The notes below the pieces were generated by a model, which worked only from the letters and a program-made list of their open reading frames with translations, did not search any database and had not been told where the DNA came from. DNA of 64,000 bases from an uncultured candidatus Brocadiaceae bacterium (GTDB lineage Bacteria > Planctomycetota > Brocadiia > SM23-32): contig CAZFSS010000001.1 in NCBI GenBank assembly GCA_964521715.1, positions 26,802 through 90,801 of the forward strand, read 5' to 3'. The stretch's first letter is position 1; every line of letters starts with the position of its first letter. This document shows, one piece after another, positions 1-58,260 of this stretch. Position numbers and translations under genes: made by a program.

Positions 1-777
1 ATGCCGCAAGGCGAGCTGTCCGCGTTTGGCGATTACCTGAGCAAGGACTACGTGCTGGTGCTCGTCTGGATAGGTTCGCGCGAGGAGGTCATGAAGAAGT
101 TCCCGGGCTACGGGACGGCCTGGGACATGGCGCGGTGGCCGTGCGTGCACGTCCGGTTCCCAACGGAGCGCCCGTTCTACCCGCTTCGGCCGACGTCGTC
201 TTACGGAAGTGCCGAGATGAGGATACGCCTGTTCCTGATCGGCTACTTCGATGTCGCGAACAAAGAGTCATTAGGTCACGAAGCGGGTGTCCGCTACTAC
301 CGGCACGGGAGTCGCCTCGAAGGCGCGCCCAAGGGCTTCCCGCAAGGGACATCGGGCGGTCACATGCCATACACGCGCGTCTGGTTCCAGACGGCGGCGA
401 GGAATCTCACCGAGGACCTCTGGTTCTTGCCGGTCAAGGTGCCGAGCATGGCCTACGGCGCAGCCATCGACTCCATCCTCTCGCGCGAGTACGCCCCGTG
501 GTCCTGGCTCTACCCCTGGGCGCTCTGCCTGGCCGGGCTGTCCTATGTCTCGGCCGGGCTTGCGTCCCTGGTCGTCTACCGGTCGTGGAGGCGCAAGGCC
601 CTGATGGGCCTTTGGAACATGCTGACCCTCGTGGGCCTGGCCATCGCCGTGTTCACCCGGCCTGCCGCCGACAACCGGGAGCGCAACCTTCGGGCCCTGT
701 TCTTCCTCGCCTTCGGCTGCGCCTTCCTGCTTCTGAGCTGCTTGTTCGAGCAGGTGCTCCTCCGGCCGCTGGGCTGA
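1..777 (+). CDS. hypothetical membrane protein (5' partial, runs off window edge)
   Basis: Long protein-like ORF from position 1; C-terminal hydrophobic segments (LYPWALCLAGLSYVSAGLASLVV, MLTLVGLAIAVF, LFFLAFGCAFLLLSCLF); no family recognised. Confidence 0.5.
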   Translation: MPQGELSAFGDYLSKDYVLVLVWIGSREEVMKKFPGYGTAWDMARWPCVHVRFPTERPFYPLRPTSSYGSAEMRIRLFLIGYFDVANKESLGHEAGVRYYRHGSRLEGAPKGFPQGTSGGHMPYTRVWFQTAARNLTEDLWFLPVKVPSMAYGAAIDSILSREYAPWSWLYPWALCLAGLSYVSAGLASLVVYRSWRRKALMGLWNMLTLVGLAIAVFTRPAADNRERNLRALFFLAFGCAFLLLSCLFEQVLLRPLG

Positions 778-49744: not shown

Positions 49745-50932
49745 TCAGTAGATCCTGCTCAGCTCCGCCCCCGGATAGTAGTACCGCAGGATCTCCCACC
49801 AATCCCTGCCGGCCGCCGCCAGCCCGCGTGCGCCCCACTGGCACAGGCCGACGCCGTGACCGTGACCGTGTCCCTTGAAGAGGAACCGGCCGTCGCCTGC
49901 CTCCACGGTGAAGCGGGCGCTCTTGAGCAGGTTCGAGCCCACGCTGGACCGGAAGGCGTTCGCGCTGACCCGCAACGTGCCGTTGACCTCAACGTAGCGC
50001 GCGTACCCGTCCCCTTCGACGCCCACGGGCGATATCGTGCGCACGGGCTCTGCGTCGTCGCGACCGAGCGCCTGGGAGATCCGGTAGCCCGGGATTTCCG
50101 CGCGCCATTCGTAGGTGGGGCTCTGCCGGCACCACTCGCACGGTACCCCCTGCAAAGGAGGAATGGGGTCCATGGCGAACGCCTTGTCGACTGCGGCCGT
50201 GTGCCCTCCGCACGTGCTGTGGAAGTAGGCAGGCAGTGCCTTCGACCCGTAGGTGAGCACCACTCCGGCCGTCAGCCCCACGGCCAGGTCGGCGGAGGCG
50301 TTCTCCTCGGCGCTGCCGCCGTAGGCCATGTCGTACGGGCTCAGATAGCCCTTGTCCTGCAGGGCGTAGAGCATGAAGGTCCTGGCCGCCACGGCCTGGG
50401 CCATGAGGGCGTCGAGCGGCCAGGTTCGGTACACCTCGGTGCCGACGACGCTGCGCAGGTAGTCGTCCGGCCTGACGAGGTCCACCGCGACGATGCGGCC
50501 GTCAGAGCCGGCTTCGACGGCGAGCACGCCCCTGTACTTGCGCCCGCCGAGCCTGAACGGGCCGGAGGAAGGCTGCAGTTCCAGCTTGGCCCAGGGCTGC
50601 TGCTCGTCGTCCAGCACCAGATGCCCCTCCGCAACGGCCAACCGCCACGGCCCGATGCCGCCGGTCAGGGCCTCCCGCGTCCCGTCGGCCACGCCGTACC
50701 AGGTGCCGCCCTCGGCGCACCCCGCGAGCAGCTCCCCGTCCGATCTGGCCAGTTGGGCTCGCATGAGGGGCGGCTCGGCCACGGCCGGCGGAGCCGGCGG
50801 GTATGCGAGCGGCCACTGCGGCCTGGCCGGCCGGCAGGAGAGAAGCAACAGCGCCGGGCCCGCCACCATCAGGACAAGGAGCAGTGCCCCGCCCACACCG
50901 CATGCGGCCTTTAGATGGGTCCGCTTCCTCAC
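49745..50932 (-). CDS. SpoIID/LytB domain protein
   Basis: Signal/TM N-terminus; SpoIID-type motifs ([42 protein letters not shown]). Confidence 0.85.
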
Positions 50933-50975
50933 GGCCTCCTCGCTCGGGTTGCGCTGGCGCTCATGCCTCGCCGGG

Positions 50976-51557
50976 TCAGCCTTTCTCCATCGGGCCAGGG
51001 CCCTGGTAGACGTGGCGCGTCGTGTCCCTGAATCTCTCCCACTCGCTGAAGACGCAGCCGCAGTAGCTCTGCAGGTAGAGCCTCATCTCCCCGGCCCGGC
51101 GGTGGCTCTCCTCGGCCAGCGGCCGCCAGTCGAGGTACAGGAACGGGACCCCCGCCAGGTCGGCGCATTGCTCGCCAATGCTCCGGGCCAGGTCATGGTA
51201 CTGGTGATGGCTGGCCAGCAGCGTTGTGGTAAACGCGCTGAACCCGCGCCGGGCCGCCTCCTGCGCCGTGCGCTTCAGGCGGAAGCGGTAGCAGTCCGCG
51301 CAGCGTTCCCGGCGTTCAACGCCGGACCAGCGCACGGACCTCAGGTACTCTTCCAGCCCGTAGTCCTCCTCGCAGAGGACACCGATCGGCAGGCGCTCCT
51401 GCAGCACCTTCAGGGCCTTCTTGCGCCGGCGGAACTCGATCAACGGGTGGATGTTGGGGTTGTAGAAATGCCCGGTCACGTCGTGCCCCAGGTCCACCAG
51501 ATTCTCATACGGGCCGATGGCGCAGGGAGCGCAGCAGATGTGCAGGAGGATTCGCAT
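50976..51557 (-). CDS. queH: epoxyqueuosine reductase QueH (DUF208)
   Basis: MRILLHICCAPCAIGP N-terminus with conserved Cys cluster, plus CADCYRFRL and CGCVFS. Confidence 0.9.
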   Translation of the reverse strand: MRILLHICCAPCAIGPYENLVDLGHDVTGHFYNPNIHPLIEFRRRKKALKVLQERLPIGVLCEEDYGLEEYLRSVRWSGVERRERCADCYRFRLKRTAQEAARRGFSAFTTTLLASHHQYHDLARSIGEQCADLAGVPFLYLDWRPLAEESHRRAGEMRLYLQSYCGCVFSEWERFRDTTRHVYQGPGPMEKG

Positions 51558-51594
51558 GGCGTGCTGGGGCGCGGACCGGGCGCGCGGAGGAGCT

Positions 51595-52644
51595 TCAGAA
51601 CAGGGCGCCTTGTCCCTCGCCGTCCTGTCCCTCGCCCAGGTGTTCGCGGACCATCTTTGCCCCGTCGGCGGTGAGGACGCGTCCGCGCGCCGTCCGCTCC
51701 ATCAGGCCCTCCCTGATCAGGAAGGGCTCGTAGACGTCCTCAATGGTGTCTTCCTCTTCGCCGACGACGGCGGCTATGGTCTTGAGGCCGACGGCCTGAC
51801 CGGCGTTGCGGGCCAGCACCAGGAGGATCCTGCGGTCCATCTCGGCGAGGCCCATCTGGTCGACTCCCAGTCGGGCGAGTCCCTCCAGGGCCAGTTCGCA
51901 CGTGACCGCGGAGCGGCCCTGTGCCTGGGCCACGTCCCGGATCCGTCGCAGGAGGCGATTGGCGACCCGAGGGGTGCCGCGGGCGCGCCGGGCGATCAGC
52001 GTCGCCGCCTCTTCGTCAATGCCTATGTTGAGGACGCGGGCGCTGTTCTTCAGGATGCAGGTGAGCTCGTCCGGCGTGTAGAAGTCGAGTCTCTCCATTA
52101 TCTGGAACCGGCCCCGCAGAGGCGGGGAGAGCAGGCCTTCCCGCGTCGTCGCGCCGATCAAGGTGAAGGGCTTCAGGTCCATCCTGACCGAGCGGCTGTG
52201 AGGCCCGGAGTCGATCATGATCGAGATGAAGAAGTCCTCCATCGCCGTGTAGAGGAACTCCTCGACGCGCACGTCGAGACGATGTATCTCGTCGATGAAG
52301 AGGATGTCGCCCGCCTGCCGGTTCGTCAGCAGGCCGACCAGGTCGCGCGCCTTGGTGAGCGCGGGCCCGCTGGTCGGCTTGATGTCCACTTGGAGCTCAT
52401 TGGCGATGATGTAGGCCAGGGTCGTCTTGCCCAGGCCGGGCGGCCCGCTGAAGAGGATGTGGTCCAGGGCCTCGCCCCGCATTCTGGCTCCCTGGATCCA
52501 CGTCTTCAGGTTCTCGATGGTCTTGGGCCGGCCCACGAAGTCCCTGAACGAACGAGGCCGCAGCATGCCGTCCAGCGCGCGCTCGTCGTCCTGGGGAAAC
52601 CCCGAGTATACGCTCCGGTCTCTCGTGGCAGCCATTTGCCGCAC
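51595..52644 (-). CDS. ruvB: Holliday junction branch migration DNA helicase RuvB
   Basis: LFSGPPGLGKTTLA Walker A, DEIHRL Walker B, winged-helix C-terminus. Confidence 0.95.
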   Translation of the reverse strand: MRQMAATRDRSVYSGFPQDDERALDGMLRPRSFRDFVGRPKTIENLKTWIQGARMRGEALDHILFSGPPGLGKTTLAYIIANELQVDIKPTSGPALTKARDLVGLLTNRQAGDILFIDEIHRLDVRVEEFLYTAMEDFFISIMIDSGPHSRSVRMDLKPFTLIGATTREGLLSPPLRGRFQIMERLDFYTPDELTCILKNSARVLNIGIDEEAATLIARRARGTPRVANRLLRRIRDVAQAQGRSAVTCELALEGLARLGVDQMGLAEMDRRILLVLARNAGQAVGLKTIAAVVGEEEDTIEDVYEPFLIREGLMERTARGRVLTADGAKMVREHLGEGQDGEGQGALF

Positions 52645-52665
52645 GTCGCTGCGAGATCAATGCTC

Positions 52666-53247
52666 TCAATGGGAGAGCGCTTCTTCAACCAGGCTCTGTC
52701 TGTCCGCATCGGCGCCGAGCTTCTTCACGGCCGCCTTCACGGCCCTCTCGGCCGCCGCCCGCGATTCGCCCAGGGCGATCAGAGCTGCGACGGCGTCGCG
52801 GGCGACCTGGCCGGCCGGCCCCTCCCAGGGCTCGACGGCCAGTCCCTCGACGGGCCCCTGAAGCTCGGCCACCAGCCTCCTGGCCGTCTTGGCTCCGATG
52901 CCCTTCACCATGCTCTTGAGCGCGTCGACGTCCTCGTCCAGGACGTAGCGCTTGAGCTGCCCGGGCGTGCATCCGCTCAGGATCCGCATGGCCACCATCG
53001 GCCCGATCTGGCTGACGCCCAGCAGCATGTGGAAGAGCTGGCGTTCGACCTCGGTGGCGAACCCGTACAGCCGCAGCTCGTCCTCGCGCACGTGCAGGCA
53101 GGTCAGGAGCCGGACCTCTTGGCCGACCTTGGGGAGGGACTCATAGGTGGCCAGAGAAACGTGCAGGCGCAAACCGACCCCGGCCGTCCGAACGATGGCG
53201 ACGCCAGGGCTCTTGGAGGCAAGCTCGCCCTGGAGGAAGTCGATCAT
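52666..53247 (-). CDS. ruvA: Holliday junction DNA helicase RuvA
   Basis: MIDFLQGEL...LYGF N-terminal OB domain, HhH motifs, C-terminal RuvB-interaction domain. Confidence 0.9.
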   Translation of the reverse strand: MIDFLQGELASKSPGVAIVRTAGVGLRLHVSLATYESLPKVGQEVRLLTCLHVREDELRLYGFATEVERQLFHMLLGVSQIGPMVAMRILSGCTPGQLKRYVLDEDVDALKSMVKGIGAKTARRLVAELQGPVEGLAVEPWEGPAGQVARDAVAALIALGESRAAAERAVKAAVKKLGADADRQSLVEEALSH

Positions 53248-53253
53248 CCCGAA

Positions 53254-54507
53254 TCAGTCGCTCTTGAGGGAGAGCCCCAGCGCGCCCAGTTTGGTCTCGA
53301 TCTCCTTCAGGCTGGTCGCGCCGAAGTTAGGGACGCCCAGCAAGTGCTTCCTGGTCAGTTGGATCAACTGGCCGACCGTCGTCACTCCCAACCGTTCCAT
53401 ACACTTGCGGGACCGGGTCGAGAGCTCAAGCTCCTCGACCGACATGTTCAGCCTTTCCTGGACCGGTATGTCCTCGCCGGCCTCGAGCGCGCTGATCGCG
53501 CGGCCCGTCCTGGCGCCTGTGGCCTCGTAGCGGGCCAACAGATCCTGCACTTCGTGCTCGTTGAGCATGTTGTCCCGCACGGCGGGGCCGGGCATCGAGG
53601 CGCCGATCTCTCCCAGGCCTCCCTCGGGCAGGCCGAATATCTCGTCCATCGTCCTCAGGCGCTGCGGCTTGCTCACGTCGACGTACATCGTCAATGACGA
53701 CTCGGCGTCCTTCAGGTACAACTGCGCCTGCTTGTGCGTCGGCTCGATGGCCAGCACACGCTTGTAGCAGTTGATCGCCTCCTCGTATTCTCCGTGGTCT
53801 TCGTAGAGGACGCCCAGGTTGATCAGCGCGCCCACGTACGTGGGCTGGAGCCTGACGCAGCGCTCGTAGAGCCCCCTGGCGCGGTCGTCTTCGCCGTTCA
53901 GGTCGCAGTTCAGCGCCAGGCGGAACAGGCTGCGGGTATGCTTCGGGTCCTTGGTCAGAGCCGCCTCGAAGAACTCGATGGCCTGGCCGTACTCCCCCTC
54001 GGTCTCGGCCACGCGGCCCCTCGCGTAGAGGACGTCGGCCGACGCCCCCCCATCGTCGGGCAGGCCCTTCAGCAGCTTCTCCGCCGGTTCGTAGTCGCGC
54101 AGGTTGCAGTGGGCCTCGATCATCAGGACGTCGGTTTCCCGGTCGTCCTCGCTGAGTCGGCCCTTGTCCAGGTACTCGATGGCTTCCCGTTCCCGGCCCA
54201 TCTTCAGGTATGCGCGACCGAGGAAATGGGAAGCCGTCTTGCGCGTACGGATCTTCTCGAGCTCCCGCGCTGCGGCGCCGTAGTCGCCCCTCGCGAAGTG
54301 CAGTATGCCGACCTTCTCCAGCACGTCGCGCTGCTGGTCCTCGGAAGCTCCTTCGAGCTGCGCTTGCACGTCTCTGATCCGGCTGTCGGTGAAGTCGACG
54401 TTCGAGTAGCTCTCGTAGATGCGCTGAACCAGCTCATCGAAGTTCGTGCGGTCGAGCACTCCGGCCAGCAGCTCGTCCAACTTCTGCTTCGTGGCAGCAG
54501 TCGTCAT
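53254..54507 (-). CDS. TPR-repeat protein with C-terminal RNA polymerase alpha-subunit CTD-like domain
   Basis: Multiple TPR repeats (AIEYLDKG..., YARGRVAETEGEYGQAIEFFEAAL, YVGALINLGVLYEDHGEYEEAINCYKRVLAI); the last ~65 aa (MSVEELELSTRSRKCMERLGVTTVGQLIQLTRKHLLGVPNFGATSLKEIETKL) match the RpoA alpha-CTD helix-hairpin-helix. Confidence 0.75.
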   Translation of the reverse strand: MTTAATKQKLDELLAGVLDRTNFDELVQRIYESYSNVDFTDSRIRDVQAQLEGASEDQQRDVLEKVGILHFARGDYGAAARELEKIRTRKTASHFLGRAYLKMGREREAIEYLDKGRLSEDDRETDVLMIEAHCNLRDYEPAEKLLKGLPDDGGASADVLYARGRVAETEGEYGQAIEFFEAALTKDPKHTRSLFRLALNCDLNGEDDRARGLYERCVRLQPTYVGALINLGVLYEDHGEYEEAINCYKRVLAIEPTHKQAQLYLKDAESSLTMYVDVSKPQRLRTMDEIFGLPEGGLGEIGASMPGPAVRDNMLNEHEVQDLLARYEATGARTGRAISALEAGEDIPVQERLNMSVEELELSTRSRKCMERLGVTTVGQLIQLTRKHLLGVPNFGATSLKEIETKLGALGLSLKSD

Positions 54508-54600
54508 AATGGTCCTTTAGCAAATGACTTAGGGCATGGAAGGAGGGCCATACAAGCGACATGCGACAGCACGCGCTTTTGTCTCAGGGTACCAGAAAGT

Positions 54601-54629
54601 TTGACCAGTGTCAAGCTATCTGGTATGCT
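54601..54629 (+). promoter_or_regulatory. sigma-70 type promoter of kdsA-nadD (TTGACC-17-TATGCT)
   Basis: ttgacc agtgtcaagctatctgg tatgct about 60 nt upstream of the kdsA ATG; coordinates +/-2. Confidence 0.45.
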
Positions 54630-54691
54630 GCTTGCTCTGGGGGCGCGACTGCTGCAAGGACCATGGTGGGCTCGGAAGGAAAGCCCGTCCG

Positions 54692-55516
54692 ATGGGAAGA
54701 GTCAACATAACGGACTCCGTCGCCGTCGGCGATGGCCTGCCCCTGTTCGTGGTGGCCGGGCCCTGCGTCATCGAGAGCAGGCAGTTGTGCATCGACATTG
54801 CGGGCCGCATGAAGGAGGCCTGCGACGAGCTGGAGCTGCCCTACGTCTTCAAGGCGTCCTTCGACAAGGCCAATCGGACCAGCATCGCGTCCTTCCGCGG
54901 CGTGGGGCTCGAGGAGGGGCTGCGCATCCTGGGCCAGGTGAAGGAGCAGGTGCATGTGCCCGTCCTGACGGACATCCACACGCCCGACCAGGCCGCGCCC
55001 GTCGCGCAGGTCGTCGACGTGCTCCAGATCCCCGCCTTCCTGTGCCGGCAGACAGACCTGCTGGTGGCCGCCGCCCGCACGGGCGCCGCGATCAACATCA
55101 AGAAGGGCCAGTTCATGGCTCCGGATGAGATGAAGCGCGCGGCGGAGAAGGTCACCCTGATGGGCAACGACCGCGTGATGCTGTGCGAGCGGGGCACGTG
55201 CTTCGGTTACCACGACTTGGTGGTGGACATGCGTTCCATCGTGCGCATGAAGTCCATCGGGCACCCGGTCCTGTTCGATGCCACGCATTCGACGCAGCGG
55301 CCGGGAGGCCTCGGCTTCCAGAGCGACGGGGAGCGGCAGATGATCCCCGCGTTGGCCCAGGCGGCCGTGGCCGTCGGCGTCGACGGCGTGTTCCTGGAAG
55401 TCCATCCCGACCCAGACACGGCCCTCTCCGACGGCGCCAGCATGCTGCACATCAATGCGGCTCCGGCCTTGCTGGCGCAGTTGAAGGCCATCTCGACTCT
55501 TCCGGGAATAAGGTGA
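54692..55516 (+). CDS. kdsA: 3-deoxy-8-phosphooctulonate synthase
   Basis: FVVAGPCVIES, FKASFDKANRTS, QIPAFLCRQTDLL KDO8P synthase motifs. Confidence 0.95.
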   Translation: MGRVNITDSVAVGDGLPLFVVAGPCVIESRQLCIDIAGRMKEACDELELPYVFKASFDKANRTSIASFRGVGLEEGLRILGQVKEQVHVPVLTDIHTPDQAAPVAQVVDVLQIPAFLCRQTDLLVAAARTGAAINIKKGQFMAPDEMKRAAEKVTLMGNDRVMLCERGTCFGYHDLVVDMRSIVRMKSIGHPVLFDATHSTQRPGGLGFQSDGERQMIPALAQAAVAVGVDGVFLEVHPDPDTALSDGASMLHINAAPALLAQLKAISTLPGIR

Positions 55517-56136
55517 TGGCCGGAACGGGCATCTTCGGGGGTTCGTTCAATCCCGTCCACGTCGGGCACCTGATCCTGGCCGAACGGGCCCGTTCGGAAC
55601 GTTCCCTGGACGAGGTCCTCTTCGTGCCCGCCCCGCGGCCCCCGCACAAGTCGGATCGCCCGCTGATTGCGGCCCGGCATCGCATGCGCATGGTGGAGCT
55701 GGCCATCGAGGGCAACCCGGCCTTCACGGCTCTGCCGCTCGAGATAGAACGCGAGGGGCCGTCCTACACGCTCACTACGGTCAGGCAGCTTCGCCAGGAG
55801 AAGGGCGGGGCGGATCTGTACCTCGTTCTTGGGGGGGACAGCCTGCACGACATCCCGACCTGGTGGCGCGCCGAGGAGCTGGTCCGAGAAGTGGACATCA
55901 TCGCCTTCGACCGGCCCGGCAGCACGGTCGAGGCAGCGCTTTCAAGGCTGACGGGCGTCTTCGGCGAGGCATGGGCGGAGCGGGTCCGCGAACTGAAGGT
56001 CGAGGCTCCCCTGCTGGACATGTCCGCCACGGACGTTCGCTGCCGGGTTGGCGAGGGCAAGTCCGTCCGCTACCTGGTGCCCGACGCGGTGCACCGCTAC
56101 ATCATCGACAACGGCCTCTACCGCAGCGCCCGATGA
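55516..56136 (+). CDS. nadD: nicotinate-nucleotide adenylyltransferase
   Basis: GIFGGSFNPVHVGHL (HxGH) and ISATDVR motifs; ATG overlaps the kdsA stop (TGATG). Confidence 0.9.
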   Translation: MAGTGIFGGSFNPVHVGHLILAERARSERSLDEVLFVPAPRPPHKSDRPLIAARHRMRMVELAIEGNPAFTALPLEIEREGPSYTLTTVRQLRQEKGGADLYLVLGGDSLHDIPTWWRAEELVREVDIIAFDRPGSTVEAALSRLTGVFGEAWAERVRELKVEAPLLDMSATDVRCRVGEGKSVRYLVPDAVHRYIIDNGLYRSAR

Positions 56137-56167
56137 GCCGTTGGGGCCGGTCGGCGCGCGGCGGCAT

Positions 56168-57208
56168 TCACTCGGGCTCGACGTCCTCCGTGTCTTCCAG
56201 GTCGCGGCCGGCTATGCGGCGCAGGTCCTGCCTTCGCTTGCGCCGGCTCGGGCTGCGCCTTGCCTTGGCGATCTGCTGCGTTGGCTCCTCGACGTCGGTC
56301 TCCCGCGGCACCCGCTGCTCCTCGGTTGTCTCGACGATTCTGACGTACCTGCCGTAGTGGGCCGGCGGCAGTTCGCCCGTTTCGACCGCTTCTTTGACGG
56401 CACAACCGGGCTCGTGCATGTGGAGGCAATCGGGCATGCGGCAATCCGCGGACAGCTCCCATATGCGGGGGAAGAACTGCGCCACGTCCCGCTTCTCGAT
56501 CTCCCACAGCGTGAACTCGCGTATGCCGGGCGTGTCCACGACGTAGCCGCCGAAGTCCAGGGCCAGCAGCGAGACGCTGCTGGTCGTGTGCCGCCCCTTC
56601 GCCATGACCGGTCCGGTCTTGAGCCTCAGGCCGGGCTGGATGGCATTGATCAGAGCCGATTTGCCGACGCCGCTGTGGCCGGCCAGAACCGTGCTCTTGT
56701 TGCGGAGGACGTTTATCAGGGCCCCCAGGCCCGTGCGCTTCGTGGCGCTGGTCAGGAGCACCTCGTAGCCCATCTCGCGGTAGAGCTCTGCGGCGTCCAG
56801 GTAATCCGATTCGTCCTTTGCCAGGTCGGTCTTGTTGATGCAGACGACCGGCTCGATGCCGCCGGCCTCGCCGGCGATGACGTAGCGGTCGATGATGCCG
56901 GGAGTCAGCGACGGCCTGCGGACGGAGGCGACGATGAGGATCTGGTCGACGTTGGCCACGATGACGTGTTCGATCCTGGGATCGCGGGGCGATCGGCGGG
57001 AAAGCTTGGTGCGGCGGGGAAGCACCTCCCCGATGATGCCCTCGCCCTCCTCGGTGGGCGCGAAGACAACGCCGTCGCCGACGGCCAGCGGCTTCGATTC
57101 CCCCGTGTCGCTCCCTACCAGACGCCCGCGGACCTTGCACTCGTAGGTCCTGCCGCCCGCGTTCACCTCGCACAGCACCGCTTGTATCTTCGTGACGGTC
57201 CCTTGCAT
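56168..57208 (-). CDS. rsgA: ribosome small-subunit-dependent GTPase A
   Basis: OB fold N-terminus, circularly permuted GTPase motifs (CINKTDL ... LAGHSGVGKSALINA ... DTPG), C-terminal zinc-finger Cys/His (CRMPDCLHMHEPGC). Confidence 0.9.
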   Translation of the reverse strand: MQGTVTKIQAVLCEVNAGGRTYECKVRGRLVGSDTGESKPLAVGDGVVFAPTEEGEGIIGEVLPRRTKLSRRSPRDPRIEHVIVANVDQILIVASVRRPSLTPGIIDRYVIAGEAGGIEPVVCINKTDLAKDESDYLDAAELYREMGYEVLLTSATKRTGLGALINVLRNKSTVLAGHSGVGKSALINAIQPGLRLKTGPVMAKGRHTTSSVSLLALDFGGYVVDTPGIREFTLWEIEKRDVAQFFPRIWELSADCRMPDCLHMHEPGCAVKEAVETGELPPAHYGRYVRIVETTEEQRVPRETDVEEPTQQIAKARRSPSRRKRRQDLRRIAGRDLEDTEDVEPE

Positions 57209-57216
57209 ACGCTCCT

Positions 57217-58260
57217 TCAGTCGGCGCCGGTGCGGCGACTCCCCAGTTCGGTGAACAGATGATCGAGCGCTAGGCGGCGGTTGGCGTTGTTGCCGACTGC
57301 CTCGATGGCGTCGAGCACGAGATCGGCCTGCTCGAGGAAGCCGTCGGGCCCGGCGTCGGCCGCCGCCTTCCGGATTGCGTCCCGCCCGGCCCTGTTGAGG
57401 AGGGGCGGCTCACCTTTGGGGTCAGCCGCCGTCACGGCGAGGTCGCGGTAGTAGAGGAGCGCGCACTCAAGCAGCTCCTGGAGCTCGACGCGGCTTGCAG
57501 CGGCGGAGCCGCCGGCCTGCCTGGCCAGGCCGTCCAGCCAGTCGGAGAGGCGGAAGTTGTCCTCGACGGAGACTGCCCGGAGCTGCTCGATCAACTCCTT
57601 GTTGAACGCGTGCAGCCCCCCCCGGCGGAGCTGCTCGGCCAGGCCGGGGCTGCCCCAGGCGCGGCCGGCCAGCCAATGCGCGTCTTCCGGCGCCGCGCCG
57701 TCCGCCTCGAGGCGGGCGCCCAGGACCTCGGGCCTGAGGTTCCGGAGCCTGACGACGCGGCAGCGGCTGATGACCGTCTCCGGGATCGGGCGGAGGCTCG
57801 ACGCGATGAGCAGGAACACGCAGCCCCCCGGCGGCTCTTCCAGCGTCTTCAGGAAGCAGTTCGCCGCCTCGATGGACAGGCGTTCGGCGTCGCGGATGAC
57901 GAAGACGCGTCGCGAGGCGGTCACCGGCTTCAGGGCGGCCACGCGCTGCATCTCGCGCACCGCGTCGATCGGGATGAGCTGCCTGCTCTCGGGCACGGCC
58001 TCCTCCCGGTAGTCGGGGTGTCCGCCGGCGCCCATAAGCCGGCAGCTCCGGCAGGCCCCGCACGCGGCGTCCGGCTGCGGAGGCTCGTCGCACAGAAGGA
58101 TGCGGGCGAGCTCCCGCGCCATTGCCAAGCGTCCGGTGCCAGCAGAGCCTACGAAGAGAAGGGCGTGCGGCAGCCTGTCGCTCCTGAGCGCCGCACGGAT
58201 CAGGCGCGCCGCGGTCTCCTGTCCCGGGATGTCATCAAGCGACATGGTGCCCTCGGTCAC
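57217..58260 (-). CDS. holB: DNA polymerase III subunit delta'
   Basis: HALLFVGSAGTGRLAMAREL, zinc-module CGACRSC, LIASS(L)RPIPETVISRC. Confidence 0.85.
   Translation of the reverse strand: MTEGTMSLDDIPGQETAARLIRAALRSDRLPHALLFVGSAGTGRLAMARELARILLCDEPPQPDAACGACRSCRLMGAGGHPDYREEAVPESRQLIPIDAVREMQRVAALKPVTASRRVFVIRDAERLSIEAANCFLKTLEEPPGGCVFLLIASSLRPIPETVISRCRVVRLRNLRPEVLGARLEADGAAPEDAHWLAGRAWGSPGLAEQLRRGGLHAFNKELIEQLRAVSVEDNFRLSDWLDGLARQAGGSAAASRVELQELLECALLYYRDLAVTAADPKGEPPLLNRAGRDAIRKAAADAGPDGFLEQADLVLDAIEAVGNNANRRLALDHLFTELGSRRTGAD

Follow-up and report, generated by a model that had tools for sequence, protein, structure and literature searches.

TPR proteins carrying RNA polymerase alpha-CTD modules form a family confined to Planctomycetota: a reduced, single-module member directly upstream of ruvA

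The window (the whole 64-kb stretch of DNA that was analysed) contains an open-reading frame whose product is a cytoplasmic modular protein, made of a TPR solenoid, a tether and a module of the type found at the C-terminus of RpoA, the alpha subunit of RNA polymerase (RNAP) (Table 1). The fusion of a TPR protein with an alpha-CTD-like domain, read earlier from the sequence alone, is borne out: the domain is an alpha-CTD homologue, placed on a TPR scaffold by way of a flexible tether. The Pfam matches listed for the protein are TPR-type families and PF03118.

Table 1. Features of the TPR/alpha-CTD gene, its product and the genes downstream of it (positions in the window).
Feature	Position	Strand	Basis or remark
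TPR/alpha-CTD gene, complete CDS, 417 aa + stop	53254..54507	(-)	ORF list
N-terminal extension of three helices, residues 1-54; least conserved ordered part	54346..54507	(-)	AF2
TPR solenoid, residues ~55-275	53683..54345	(-)	six TPR-like helix pairs + capping helix
Hinge helix + flexible tether, residues 276-345	53473..53682	(-)	pLDDT
Module 1 remnant helix, residues 317-330 (EHEVQDLLARYEAT)	53518..53559	(-)	alignment A1
Alpha-CTD-type (HhH)2 module, residues 346-417 = family module 2	53257..53472	(-)	PF03118, hhalign
ruvA	52666..53247	(-)	Pfam RuvA_N + HHH_5; directly downstream, 6 nt past stop codon
ruvB	51595..52644	(-)	Pfam RuvB_N, AAA_lid_4, RuvB_C; second gene downstream; synteny
queH (epoxyqueuosine reductase)	50976..51557	(-)	Pfam QueH E=8.5e-54; third gene downstream; synteny (L001-L012 and others)
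SpoIID-domain gene	49745..50932	(-)	Pfam SpoIID E=6e-14; after queH

The junction with the ATG of ruvA reads TGAttcgggATG, and no terminator was seen between the two genes in the promoter/terminator scan, whose single promoter-like site lies on the strand of kdsA. Scanning the 64-kb window for Rfam families and tRNAs found nothing. Co-transcription and translational coupling of the TPR/alpha-CTD gene with ruvA are probable. The divergent neighbours are kdsA and nadD, and the order kdsA-nadD (divergent), TPR/alpha-CTD gene, ruvA, ruvB, queH, spoIID is common to the window and thirteen related loci (L001-L013). The sequence-only reading had placed the gene at the head of a ruvA-ruvB-queH string. 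In the set of the 80 best genome loci, out of up to 572, the family gene is followed immediately by ruvA in 28, of which 20 have a gap of at most 15 nt; these 28 loci span Brocadiia-like, anammox and other deep lineages. In the Gemmatales, Pirellulales, Planctomycetales and Isosphaerales ruvAB is not adjacent and tgt-secDF or other genes lie downstream, the order in Gemmataceae being the family gene, then tgt and secDF. The gene in the window shares with its relatives a position at the head of a cluster of ruvAB, a queuosine gene (queH or tgt) or secDF. The genes ruvAB, secDF and those for queuosine make up a housekeeping cluster of old standing whose members are not known to be functionally linked, so that the adjacency to ruvAB may be historical.

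The N-terminal extension is predicted to form helices at residues 2-15, 23-30 and 34-49 (AF2), and only one of its 55 columns reaches 90% conservation in the alignment of two-module relatives (A3, P0008 numbering). The solenoid is built from multiple helix-turn-helix repeats of 34 residues, as is characteristic of TPR proteins. Conservation across the family is highest in its C-terminal half (residues ~156-273), which includes the motifs ‘NLGVLYED’ and ‘LYLKDAESSL.M’, both invariant or nearly so (alignment A1). The tether of ~70 residues is largely of low confidence, with pLDDT below 50 at residues 292-336 (AF2), while the alpha-CTD module has a pLDDT of ~90; the predicted model as a whole, in which the domains are confident and the linkers have pLDDT below 50, has a pTM of 0.62-0.63.

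The alpha-CTD acts as the ‘antenna’ of RNA polymerase for UP elements and activator signals and is normally viewed as a part of RpoA. The C-terminal module of the window protein matches PF03118 (RNA_pol_A_CTD) with 67.4 bits, the Pfam cutoff being 23.8 (E=9.3e-19), its hhalign comparison with the E. coli alpha-CTD gives 99.3%, and in a PDB profile search at E<=1e-3 all 54 of 54 matches are RpoA. An HHpred-type comparison had been proposed together with the initial assignment, and on the hhalign value and the exclusively RpoA matches in the PDB the assignment stands. A generic HhH domain was considered and rejected: since the profile finds RpoA only, and not RuvA, the module is specifically an alpha-CTD.

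The module shares 43% identity over 58 residues with the E. coli RpoA alpha-CTD (residues 249-329; PDB 1COO/1LB2) and keeps the equivalents of R265, N294, G296, S299, E302, C269, D259 and E261; tethering through a flexible linker is also common to both proteins. Unlike RpoA, the window protein lacks the alpha N-terminal domain, the place of which is taken by the TPR solenoid, its family usually carries two tandem modules per chain, and the gene lies outside the ribosomal-protein operon. No match to the RpoA N-terminal domains PF01000 and PF01193 was found in the window protein (Pfam), and the rpoA models of NCBIfam, which have cutoffs of 228-523 bits, reach 36-61 bits, with the match limited to residues 344-417. 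As the N-terminal assembly domain is absent, the protein is not an RNAP alpha subunit and cannot assemble as alpha does.

The protein belongs to a Planctomycetota family of TPR proteins with two alpha-CTD modules, which is confined to this phylum, nearly universal within it and single-copy. Up to 572 species genomes carry the family, about 8000 protein clusters match it, and two homologue searches gave 7975 and 7987 strong matches among 8000 scored candidates each. Of up to 572 genome loci, the 80 best belong to MAGs of Planctomycetota; the one exception is a contig labelled Alcaligenaceae, which is probably mis-binned. A survey of the fusion across Planctomycetota, suggested with the first reading of the gene, reveals a large family seen only in that phylum. 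Identity to full-length homologues goes up to 80% (E=2.5e-214), and the window protein aligns collinearly with P0001-P0085 at 100% coverage and 45-80% identity. The family is named by database pipelines and is characterised in no paper found; a literature search for proteins combining TPR with an alpha-CTD or PF03118 found no description of it. One apparent literature match, a paper on Francisella MtvS, proved irrelevant.

Two alpha-CTD modules are present in 76 of the 80 best loci (out of up to 572), and comparison of the sequences indicates that the two-module form is the ancestral and usual state of the family. The window protein departs from it, having one module and a remnant helix of module 1, which aligns with ‘..EIEQLLARY.LELG’, the stretch that closes module 1 in relatives with both modules (alignment A1). 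Judged from this alignment, it is a derived, reduced member of the family that lost module 1 by internal deletion. An assembly or frameshift artefact was rejected as the source of the single-module form, the identical 417-aa protein being found in four independent assemblies (ERR4334733-36) and related single-module clades being known as well. Loss of module 1 occurred at least three times, with module 2 retained each time, and the anammox-type loci L034, L056 and L068 have a degenerate module 2 instead. An intact module is never missing altogether, a pattern suggestive of a common activity in which the modules are partly redundant. No region is better conserved in the single-module clade than the alpha-CTD, and its 72 codons in the window and in L001 differ by 14 synonymous-only codon differences and 9 amino-acid changes; module 2 of the window lineage is kept under purifying selection.

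The numbering of the window protein exceeds that of E. coli RpoA by 100, so that the key residues of its module are R365, K368, N394, G396, T398, S399 and E402. The contact of the alpha-CTD with DNA is mediated by the 265 determinant, comprising residues 265, 268, 294, 296, 298, 299 and 302 (PMC10853779). Five of these seven are identical in the window protein (R365, N394, G396, S399 and E402), and the other two are changed, N268 to K368 and K298 to T398. Family-wide, R265 is conserved in 76/76 copies of each module type (152/152 modules), N294, G296, S299 and E302 are nearly invariant in both types, K298 is replaced by Thr in 73/76 and 71/76 modules, N268 is Lys in module 2, and module 1 has an acidic residue at 297. 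The net charge at DNA-face positions is ~+2, compared with +5 or +6 for the E. coli and B. subtilis domains, so that the positive charge is roughly halved. Of the 287 determinant (residues 285-289, 315, 317 and 318), the contact for CAP-type activators, two of eight positions are kept, T385 and L389, and its positions are variable across the family. The 261 determinant contacts sigma4 in E. coli (PMC1874639). Module 1 has D259 in 61/76 and E261 in 74/76 copies, E261 is replaced by Asn in 50/76 copies of module 2, and the window module has E359 and E361. Overall, 15-21 of the ~58 columns of the modules show at least 90% conservation.

With five of seven positions of the 265 determinant, two of eight of the 287 determinant and about half of the charge, behaviour like that of the RpoA alpha-CTD cannot be assumed. 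Conservation of R265 is no proof of DNA binding, since in RNAP this residue serves activator contacts too. Thr298 is a deliberate departure, because alpha-CTD arrays outside RpoA mostly retain Lys or Arg at this position, and it could mean that the modules now bind protein instead of DNA. Such tandem arrays (metagenomic P0121, P0123, P0130 and P0134) resemble the TPR family in being multi-copy PF03118 proteins outside RpoA; they differ in having 3-10 modules without TPR, some being fused to sigma70 region 4 or SNF2/ResIII helicases, and in modules that mostly retain the RpoA-like N268 and K/R298.

Data on relatives in cultured species, from one proteome and the one genome-wide screen available, bear on abundance and essentiality. 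The protein VTS00398.1 of Tuwongella (T.) immobilis consists of TPR and two PF03118 modules and its gene adjoins tgt. In the soluble fraction it has an LFQ of ~8e8, with ~2e9 for RpoB (140 kDa) (PMC8567305), which puts it at about the level of RNAP beta per unit mass, LFQ over molecular weight being a crude proxy. Its S3/S1 partition is 0.51 and that of RpoB 0.52, with similar values for DnaN and many cytoplasmic proteins (PMC8567305). In Planctopirus (P.) limnophila, Plim_0602 was scored essential in that screen, and its phyletic pattern covers 42 of 45 Planctomycetes and no other organism, with 4655 surveyed. By its name, its inferred length of ~451 aa, this pattern and a nearby SpoIID gene, Plim_0602 is a probable orthologue. 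Homologue searches with Gemmataceae- and ‘Planctomycetaceae’-labelled members gave MAG proteins only, the gene order Plim_0600-0603 with a Clp-type ATPase occurs in 0 of the 80 best loci (out of up to 572), and the essential-genome supplements for V. spinosum make no mention of a Plim_0602 orthologue. The essentiality score could also reflect a polar effect on the adjacent essential gene Plim_0603. RuvA, RuvB and RuvC were all scored essential in P. limnophila; they are non-essential in E. coli.

We tentatively favour, at somewhat below an even chance, a role as a DNA-anchored TPR adaptor that acts genome-wide. The alpha-CTD-type module would sit on DNA in the manner of the RpoA alpha-CTD, in the minor groove and along the backbone, making its contacts through the invariant core of R365, N394, G396, S399 and E402, and the family-specific T398 and K368 may alter affinity or specificity. 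The conserved C-terminal TPR repeats would hold a conserved protein partner, and the long tether, like the alpha linker of RNAP, would allow the two ends to act far from each other. The use of PF03118 modules in other proteins related to DNA and transcription is in line with this reading. In the window lineage the protein would be made together with RuvA and RuvB. The RNAP-beta-like abundance and the essential probable orthologue point to a general transcription or nucleoid factor rather than a gene-specific regulator.

The architecture has parallels in other systems. The RNPP regulators (PlcR, NprR, Rap/PrgX) have an N-terminal HTH followed by TPR and serve gene-specific, non-essential quorum sensing in Firmicutes. 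The logic shared with these and other TPR-sensor regulators is that of a TPR platform for a partner or ligand combined, within a single cytoplasmic chain, with a small domain for DNA binding, but in the planctomycete family the order is reversed, the DNA-type domain is an alpha-CTD/(HhH)2 rather than an HTH, and the protein is phylum-wide, abundant and probably essential. No HTH family is among its listed Pfam matches and no sequence relationship with RNPP regulators was detected. Small HhH domains serve as flexible DNA or partner contacts also in RuvA domain II, NusA AR1/AR2 and ComEA. CarD and RbpA of Actinobacteria and GrgA of Chlamydiae, a sister PVC phylum, are lineage-specific essential general factors that bind both RNAP and DNA; they offer an analogy for the candidate role, in restriction to one phylum, housekeeping-level expression, essentiality and contact modules, but no homology.

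Several other explanations have to be weighed against the DNA-anchored adaptor. The modules might bind not DNA but the partners of the RNAP alpha-CTD, namely sigma region 4 through the 261 determinant and activators, in which case the protein would either accompany the holoenzyme, as an additional general factor resembling a subunit, or rival the RNAP alpha-CTD in binding activators. Weakened DNA binding, for which K298T, the acidic residue 297 of module 1 and the halved charge of the DNA face argue, is in line with this, as are the 261-determinant positions kept in module 1 and in the window protein, the level and equal S3/S1 partition of the T. immobilis protein relative to RpoB, and the two modules per protein, which mirror the two alpha-CTDs of RNAP. 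However, the 287 determinant is not conserved, E261 has become Asn in most module 2 copies, the residues kept most strictly are the DNA-contact set, and the co-fractionation is weak given the ratios shared by DnaN and many cytoplasmic proteins; we consider this explanation unlikely. A further proposal, rather improbable as a whole, is that of an essential accessory protein, roughly stoichiometric with RNAP, which carries extra alpha-CTD modules in trans, uses its TPR platform or a 261-type surface to dock on RNAP or sigma, adds promoter-DNA or activator contacts tuned by T298, and possibly couples transcription to RuvAB fork repair.

An accessory role in RuvAB branch migration or fork repair, where the (HhH)2 module would bind branched or duplex DNA and the TPR recruit or regulate RuvA or RuvB, would account for the gene heading the ruvA-ruvB operon. 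The tight, terminator-free junction and its recurrence in 28 of 80 loci speak for it, together with the essential scores of RuvA, RuvB, RuvC and Plim_0602 in P. limnophila and the HhH-type DNA binding common to the alpha-CTD and RuvA domain II. We nevertheless regard it as quite unlikely, since ruvAB is elsewhere in four orders, the abundance in T. immobilis is far above the expectation for a Holliday-junction accessory and the module profile recovers RpoA rather than RuvA. Highly doubtful is the view that the alpha-CTD is vestigial or purely structural, attached to a TPR protein of general chaperone or assembly function and devoid of activity on DNA or in transcription: an intact module is retained in every case, the modules are strongly conserved, up to the surface residue R265 in all copies, and the alpha-CTD is the best-kept region of the single-module clade. 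It was also suggested that a genuine rpoA lacking its CTD would point to a split gene; in such a case the TPR protein would supply the alpha-CTD in trans. A genuine rpoA is indeed absent from the window, where a phmmer search with the module against all six-frame ORFs matched the TPR/alpha-CTD gene only and gave neither a second alpha-CTD nor rpoA. Yet in P. limnophila rpoA (Plim_0499) lies in the ribosomal-protein cluster between rpsK and rplQ, and its insertion index of 0.0039604 equals 4/1010, corresponding to a full-length alpha of ~336 aa. The modules moreover have the diverged T298 signature, are usually paired on a TPR protein and belong to a stable separate gene across the phylum. With the alpha N-terminal domain missing from the window protein and with two-module relatives, a split gene is exceedingly improbable.

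The finding places a textbook RpoA domain, usually duplicated, on a separate TPR protein in a single phylum, and one of the Planctopirus ‘essential genes of unknown function’ probably belongs to the family. In practical terms, rpoA and PF03118 marker counts are inflated in planctomycete genomes and MAGs. The reuse of PF03118 modules elsewhere, fused to sigma70 region 4 or SNF2/ResIII helicases and in arrays of up to 10, indicates a wider, undescribed use of the alpha-CTD. Should binding of the protein to DNA or RNAP hold, a phylum known for its unusual cell biology would have in it a general factor of its own for transcription or chromosome biology, and if the RNAP-accessory proposal held, a phylum-specific general transcription factor or a fifth core-associated subunit.

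The window gene encodes a 417-residue protein whose translation contains the peptide cited in the sequence-only reading, which had taken the C-terminal region for a domain like that of the RNA polymerase (RNAP) alpha subunit RpoA (alpha-CTD) and the N-terminal region for TPR repeats. Both assignments are borne out. Pfam identifies TPR_2 (E=1e-27), whose canonical repeats fall at about residues 157-262, and RNA_pol_A_CTD (PF03118) at residues 350-407 (E=9.3e-19; 67.4 bits, gathering cutoff 23.8), while the NCBIfam rpoA equivalog models match residues 344-417 only and score far under their full-length cutoffs. Comparison with PDB sequences by phmmer gives the B. subtilis alpha-CTD chains 3GFK_B and 1Z3E_B at ~2e-11, and BLASTP against the reference domain, E. 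coli RpoA 249-329 (identical to 1LB2_B and 1COO), gives E=6e-15 with 43% identity over 58 ungapped residues. A profile of 25 family-module sequences (alignment A2) is matched to the same reference by hhalign with 99.3% probability (E=6.8e-21). Comparison of this profile with alpha-CTD structures such as 1COO, as had been proposed, is positive (1COO_A, 4.7e-21), and all 54 of its matches at E<=1e-3 among PDB sequences are RNAP alpha subunits, so that the domain is specifically an alpha-CTD and a plain helix-hairpin-helix is ruled out. Although its PF03118 domain and its TPRs are both genuine, the protein falls outside the RpoA family: it has no alpha N-terminal domain, and the genomic context is wrong for rpoA.

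The AlphaFold2 model, computed from a 40-sequence family alignment (mean pLDDT 83.6, pTM 0.63), contains TPR-like helix pairs and a confident alpha-CTD joined by a tether; a model of P0008, a relative with two modules, reached pLDDT 89.2 and pTM 0.62. No hydrophobic signal-like stretch is seen in the N-terminal sequence of the window protein. The whole protein is acidic (pI 5.1), as opposed to its basic alpha-CTD (pI 8.1).

Coordinates of the gene, its surroundings, related loci and protein segments
Feature	Position	Strand	Description
Nine-gene block	window 49745-58260		holB(-), rsgA(-), nadD-like(+), kdsA(+), TPR/alpha-CTD(-), ruvA(-), ruvB(-), queH(-), spoIID(-)
TPR/alpha-CTD gene	window 53254-54507	-	417 aa, ATG start
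Antisense ORF	window 51517-53697	+	726 aa
Antisense ORF	window 53734-55128	+	464 aa
Anammox-type family locus	L034:6779-8179		low-GC
Anammox-type family locus	L056:1-1224		low-GC
Anammox-type family locus	L068:3946-5328		low-GC
Three N-terminal helices	window protein 1-54		AlphaFold2 model
Six TPR-like helix pairs and cap helix	window protein 55-275		AlphaFold2, pLDDT>90
Hinge helix	window protein 279-291		AlphaFold2 model
Low-confidence tether	window protein 292-336		AlphaFold2, pLDDT<50
alpha-CTD, five helices, confident	window protein ~346-417		AlphaFold2, pLDDT ~90
TPR domain	P0008 1-271		predicted model
Hinge helix	P0008, after TPR domain		predicted model
Module 1	P0008 293-350		predicted model
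Disordered linker, ~10 residues	P0008, between modules		predicted model
Module 2	P0008 363-430		predicted model

Full-length relatives found with the window protein have 380-480 residues and all combine TPRs with PF03118. In most of them the TPR block is followed by a tandem pair of alpha-CTD modules (alignment A1); the window protein is one of a small number without module 1. Scanning one genome for each GTDB species gave 599 pattern matches, 572 of them confirmed by tblastn. The best 80 of these 572 loci lie in Planctomycetota MAGs (Brocadiia-like, Gemmataceae, Pirellulaceae, Planctomycetaceae, Isosphaeraceae, Phycisphaerae and Thermogutta), bar one contig labelled Alcaligenaceae, which is probably mis-binned; 76 of the 80 encode two modules. 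Two further homologue searches gave strong matches for 7975 and 7987 of 8000 scored candidates each. Judged by sequence, the family is a TPR protein with two alpha-CTDs found only in Planctomycetota, and the window protein is a reduced member.

A trace of the reduction is seen in residues 317-330 (EHEVQDLLARYEAT), which match up in the alignment with the final helix of module 1 of relatives that have both modules; the single-module form thus arose through an internal deletion. Four independent assemblies (ERR4334733-36) yielded the identical 417-residue protein and the same flanking genes, which rules out an artefact. When the TPR region is used for a neighbour-joining tree, the 23 single-module proteins among 116 separate into no fewer than three groups, all of which have kept module 2. 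In the three anammox-type Brocadiaceae loci module 1 is intact, whereas module 2 lacks the second hairpin ('GIKQNY' in place of 'NFG.TS'), a mirror image of the deletion of module 1 in the window lineage. As at least one good module is retained in every case, we read the two modules as sharing a partly redundant activity.

The residues with known roles in alpha-CTD (window residue = E. coli RpoA residue + 100) are unevenly preserved. The DNA-binding 265 determinant comprises residues 265, 268, 294, 296, 298, 299 and 302, and the 287 determinant residues 285-289, 315, 317 and 318 (PMC10853779); the 261 determinant contacts sigma region 4 (PMC1874639). The window module keeps five of seven residues of the 265 determinant (R365, N394, G396, S399 and E402), with N268 changed to K368 and K298 to T398, and two of eight of the 287 determinant; E359 and E361 are the equivalents of D259 and E261. 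Among 76 two-module members R265 is invariant in both modules (76/76 each), N294, G296, S299 and E302 are near-invariant, and K298 is replaced by Thr in 73 first and 71 second modules. Module 1 is acidic at position 297 and has Asn268 (63/76) and Glu261 (74/76), where module 2 has Lys268 (63/76) and Asn261 (50/76). The net charge of the DNA face is about +2 in the family; E. coli has +5 and B. subtilis +6. Columns at least 90% conserved in the two-module alignment A3 (P0008 numbering) are concentrated in the C-terminal TPR half (27/101), module 1 (21/58) and module 2 (15/59), the most constrained regions; the hinge and linker are unconstrained.

The gene does head a ruvA-ruvB-queH string, as noted from sequence; a SpoIID-domain gene follows on the same strand, kdsA and the nadD-like gene lie divergently upstream, and Pfam verified each of these neighbours. 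The stop codon of the TPR/alpha-CTD gene and the ruvA ATG are 6 nt apart (TGAttcgggATG), and a scan found no terminator-like site in the gap. The nine-gene block is collinear in the family loci L001-L011, with protein identities of 44-87%. Among the best 80 loci ruvA lies directly 3' of the family gene in 28, deep lineages included, at -8 to 128 nt (<=15 nt in 20 of 28). In Gemmatales and other orders the locus lacks ruvAB, tgt and then secDF lie downstream, and an RlmKL-type methyltransferase gene lies divergently upstream; in L021 and L042 queH and then spoIID follow directly. The gene thus heads an old ruvAB/queuosine/secDF housekeeping cluster that has survived in different parts from one lineage to another. 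Long antisense ORFs opposite ruvB, ruvA and the window gene, without homology support in cross-locus clustering, are spurious frames typical of 68% GC DNA. The 64-kb window is free of tRNA and tmRNA genes and of Rfam families at the gathering threshold. The nearest genome is the MAG CAYUDW01, labelled 'uncultured Brocadiaceae', and another relative is 'Planctomycetes bacterium SM23_32'. A GC content of 65-73%, as in the window, is unexpected for anammox Brocadiaceae, so the Brocadiaceae label is probably loose.

No paper discussing the family was found, and two supplementary tables contain members. VTS00398.1 of Tuwongella immobilis (GMBLW1_18560, 'rpoA_1' by Prokka) is a 50.0-kDa, predicted cytoplasmic protein with the Pfam list PF13174; PF03118; PF03118; PF07719; PF13432; PF13181, and is directly followed by tgt_1, as in Gemmataceae loci (PMC8567305). 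Its LFQ intensities were 7.9-8.7e8 (Tris-soluble), 3-6e7 (Triton) and 4.1-4.2e8 (SDS), those of RpoB (139.7 kDa) 2.0-2.1e9, 2.4-3.6e8 and 1.0-1.1e9, and in the soluble fraction DnaN gave 1.6-2.9e8 and GroES 1.3-1.5e9 (PMC8567305). This shows an abundant cytoplasmic protein, comparable with RpoB per unit mass by this crude measure. The name and size of Plim_0602 of Planctopirus limnophila, its phyletic distribution and a neighbouring gene make it very probably a family member; it is listed for 42 of 45 Planctomycetes but for no other PVC genome and for none of the other organisms among the 4655 (PMC10632474). The SpoIID/LytB gene Plim_0600, two genes away (PMC10632474), recalls spoIID in the window cluster. 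TraDIS scored Plim_0602 as essential, with neighbours at ~0.14 (PMC10632474); a polar effect on the adjoining essential Plim_0603 may account for this.

Exhaustive phmmer comparison of an 81-residue module with 1.84 billion representative proteins gave 8282 matches at E<=1e-3 and 800 at E<=1e-10. Metagenomic proteins among the top matches (P0121-P0265) have 3-10 tandem PF03118 modules (e.g. P0121, P0123, P0126 = L085:6001-7359, P0130, P0134 and P0176), in some cases fused to sigma-70 region 4 (P0125, P0134, P0150, P0152, P0176 and P0229), SNF2/Helicase_C (P0130), ResIII (P0143) or HARE-HTH (P0176). Unlike the TPR family, their modules mostly have RpoA-like N268 and K/R298. They appear to form a class of alpha-CTD repeat proteins that is so far undescribed.

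We tentatively favor, at somewhat less than even confidence, a TPR adaptor that is anchored to DNA and acts generally across the genome. In support of this, conservation among surface residues is strictest in the alpha-CTD core that contacts DNA, the modules resemble redundant beads strung on flexible linkers, proteins outside the family combine PF03118 modules with sigma region 4 or with helicases, and the family protein is abundant and probably essential. The chief reservation concerns K298T, a change specific to the family, and the lowered positive charge: both would suit modules that act as a protein-binding mimic or decoy, as would the conserved D259/E261 of module 1 and the RNAP-like abundance. 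Such a function is a live but rather unlikely alternative. A vestigial alpha-CTD is improbable: the domain is the best-conserved region of the single-module clade, and over its 72 codons the window and L001 genes show 14 synonymous-only differences and 9 amino-acid changes. More improbable still is a split rpoA. The genuine P. limnophila rpoA, Plim_0499, lies in the ribosomal cluster and is essential with an index of 0.0039604 (PMC10632474), which equals 4/1010 and thus indicates a full-length alpha of ~336 residues.

An accessory role for RuvAB draws on the tight and old junction with ruvA and on RuvABC co-essentiality. RuvA, RuvB and RuvC are non-essential in E. coli. In P. limnophila all three (Plim_2446, Plim_2430 and Plim_2444) were scored essential (PMC10632474, supplementary file 3) and their genes lie far from Plim_0602, an essentiality that is intriguing given the ancestral co-operonic position of the TPR/alpha-CTD gene. 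This role fits poorly with high abundance and the linkage is lost in most orders, so it seems doubtful, slightly more so than the decoy function. The adaptor would resemble in its logic the RNPP regulators, which join TPRs to a DNA-binding domain, and in its possible role the lineage-specific general transcription factors CarD, RbpA and GrgA; the window protein is homologous to none of these.

Because database pipelines have given the family domain-based names, the fusion in itself is no discovery. The two-module ancestry, T298 signature, repeated module loss, ancestral ruvAB link and tie to an abundant and probably essential gene appear undescribed in the searchable literature. Misannotation in name columns is systematic across the family, T. 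immobilis GMBLW1_18560 included (PMC8567305), and will inflate counts of rpoA and of PF03118 as single-copy markers in Planctomycetota genomes and MAGs.
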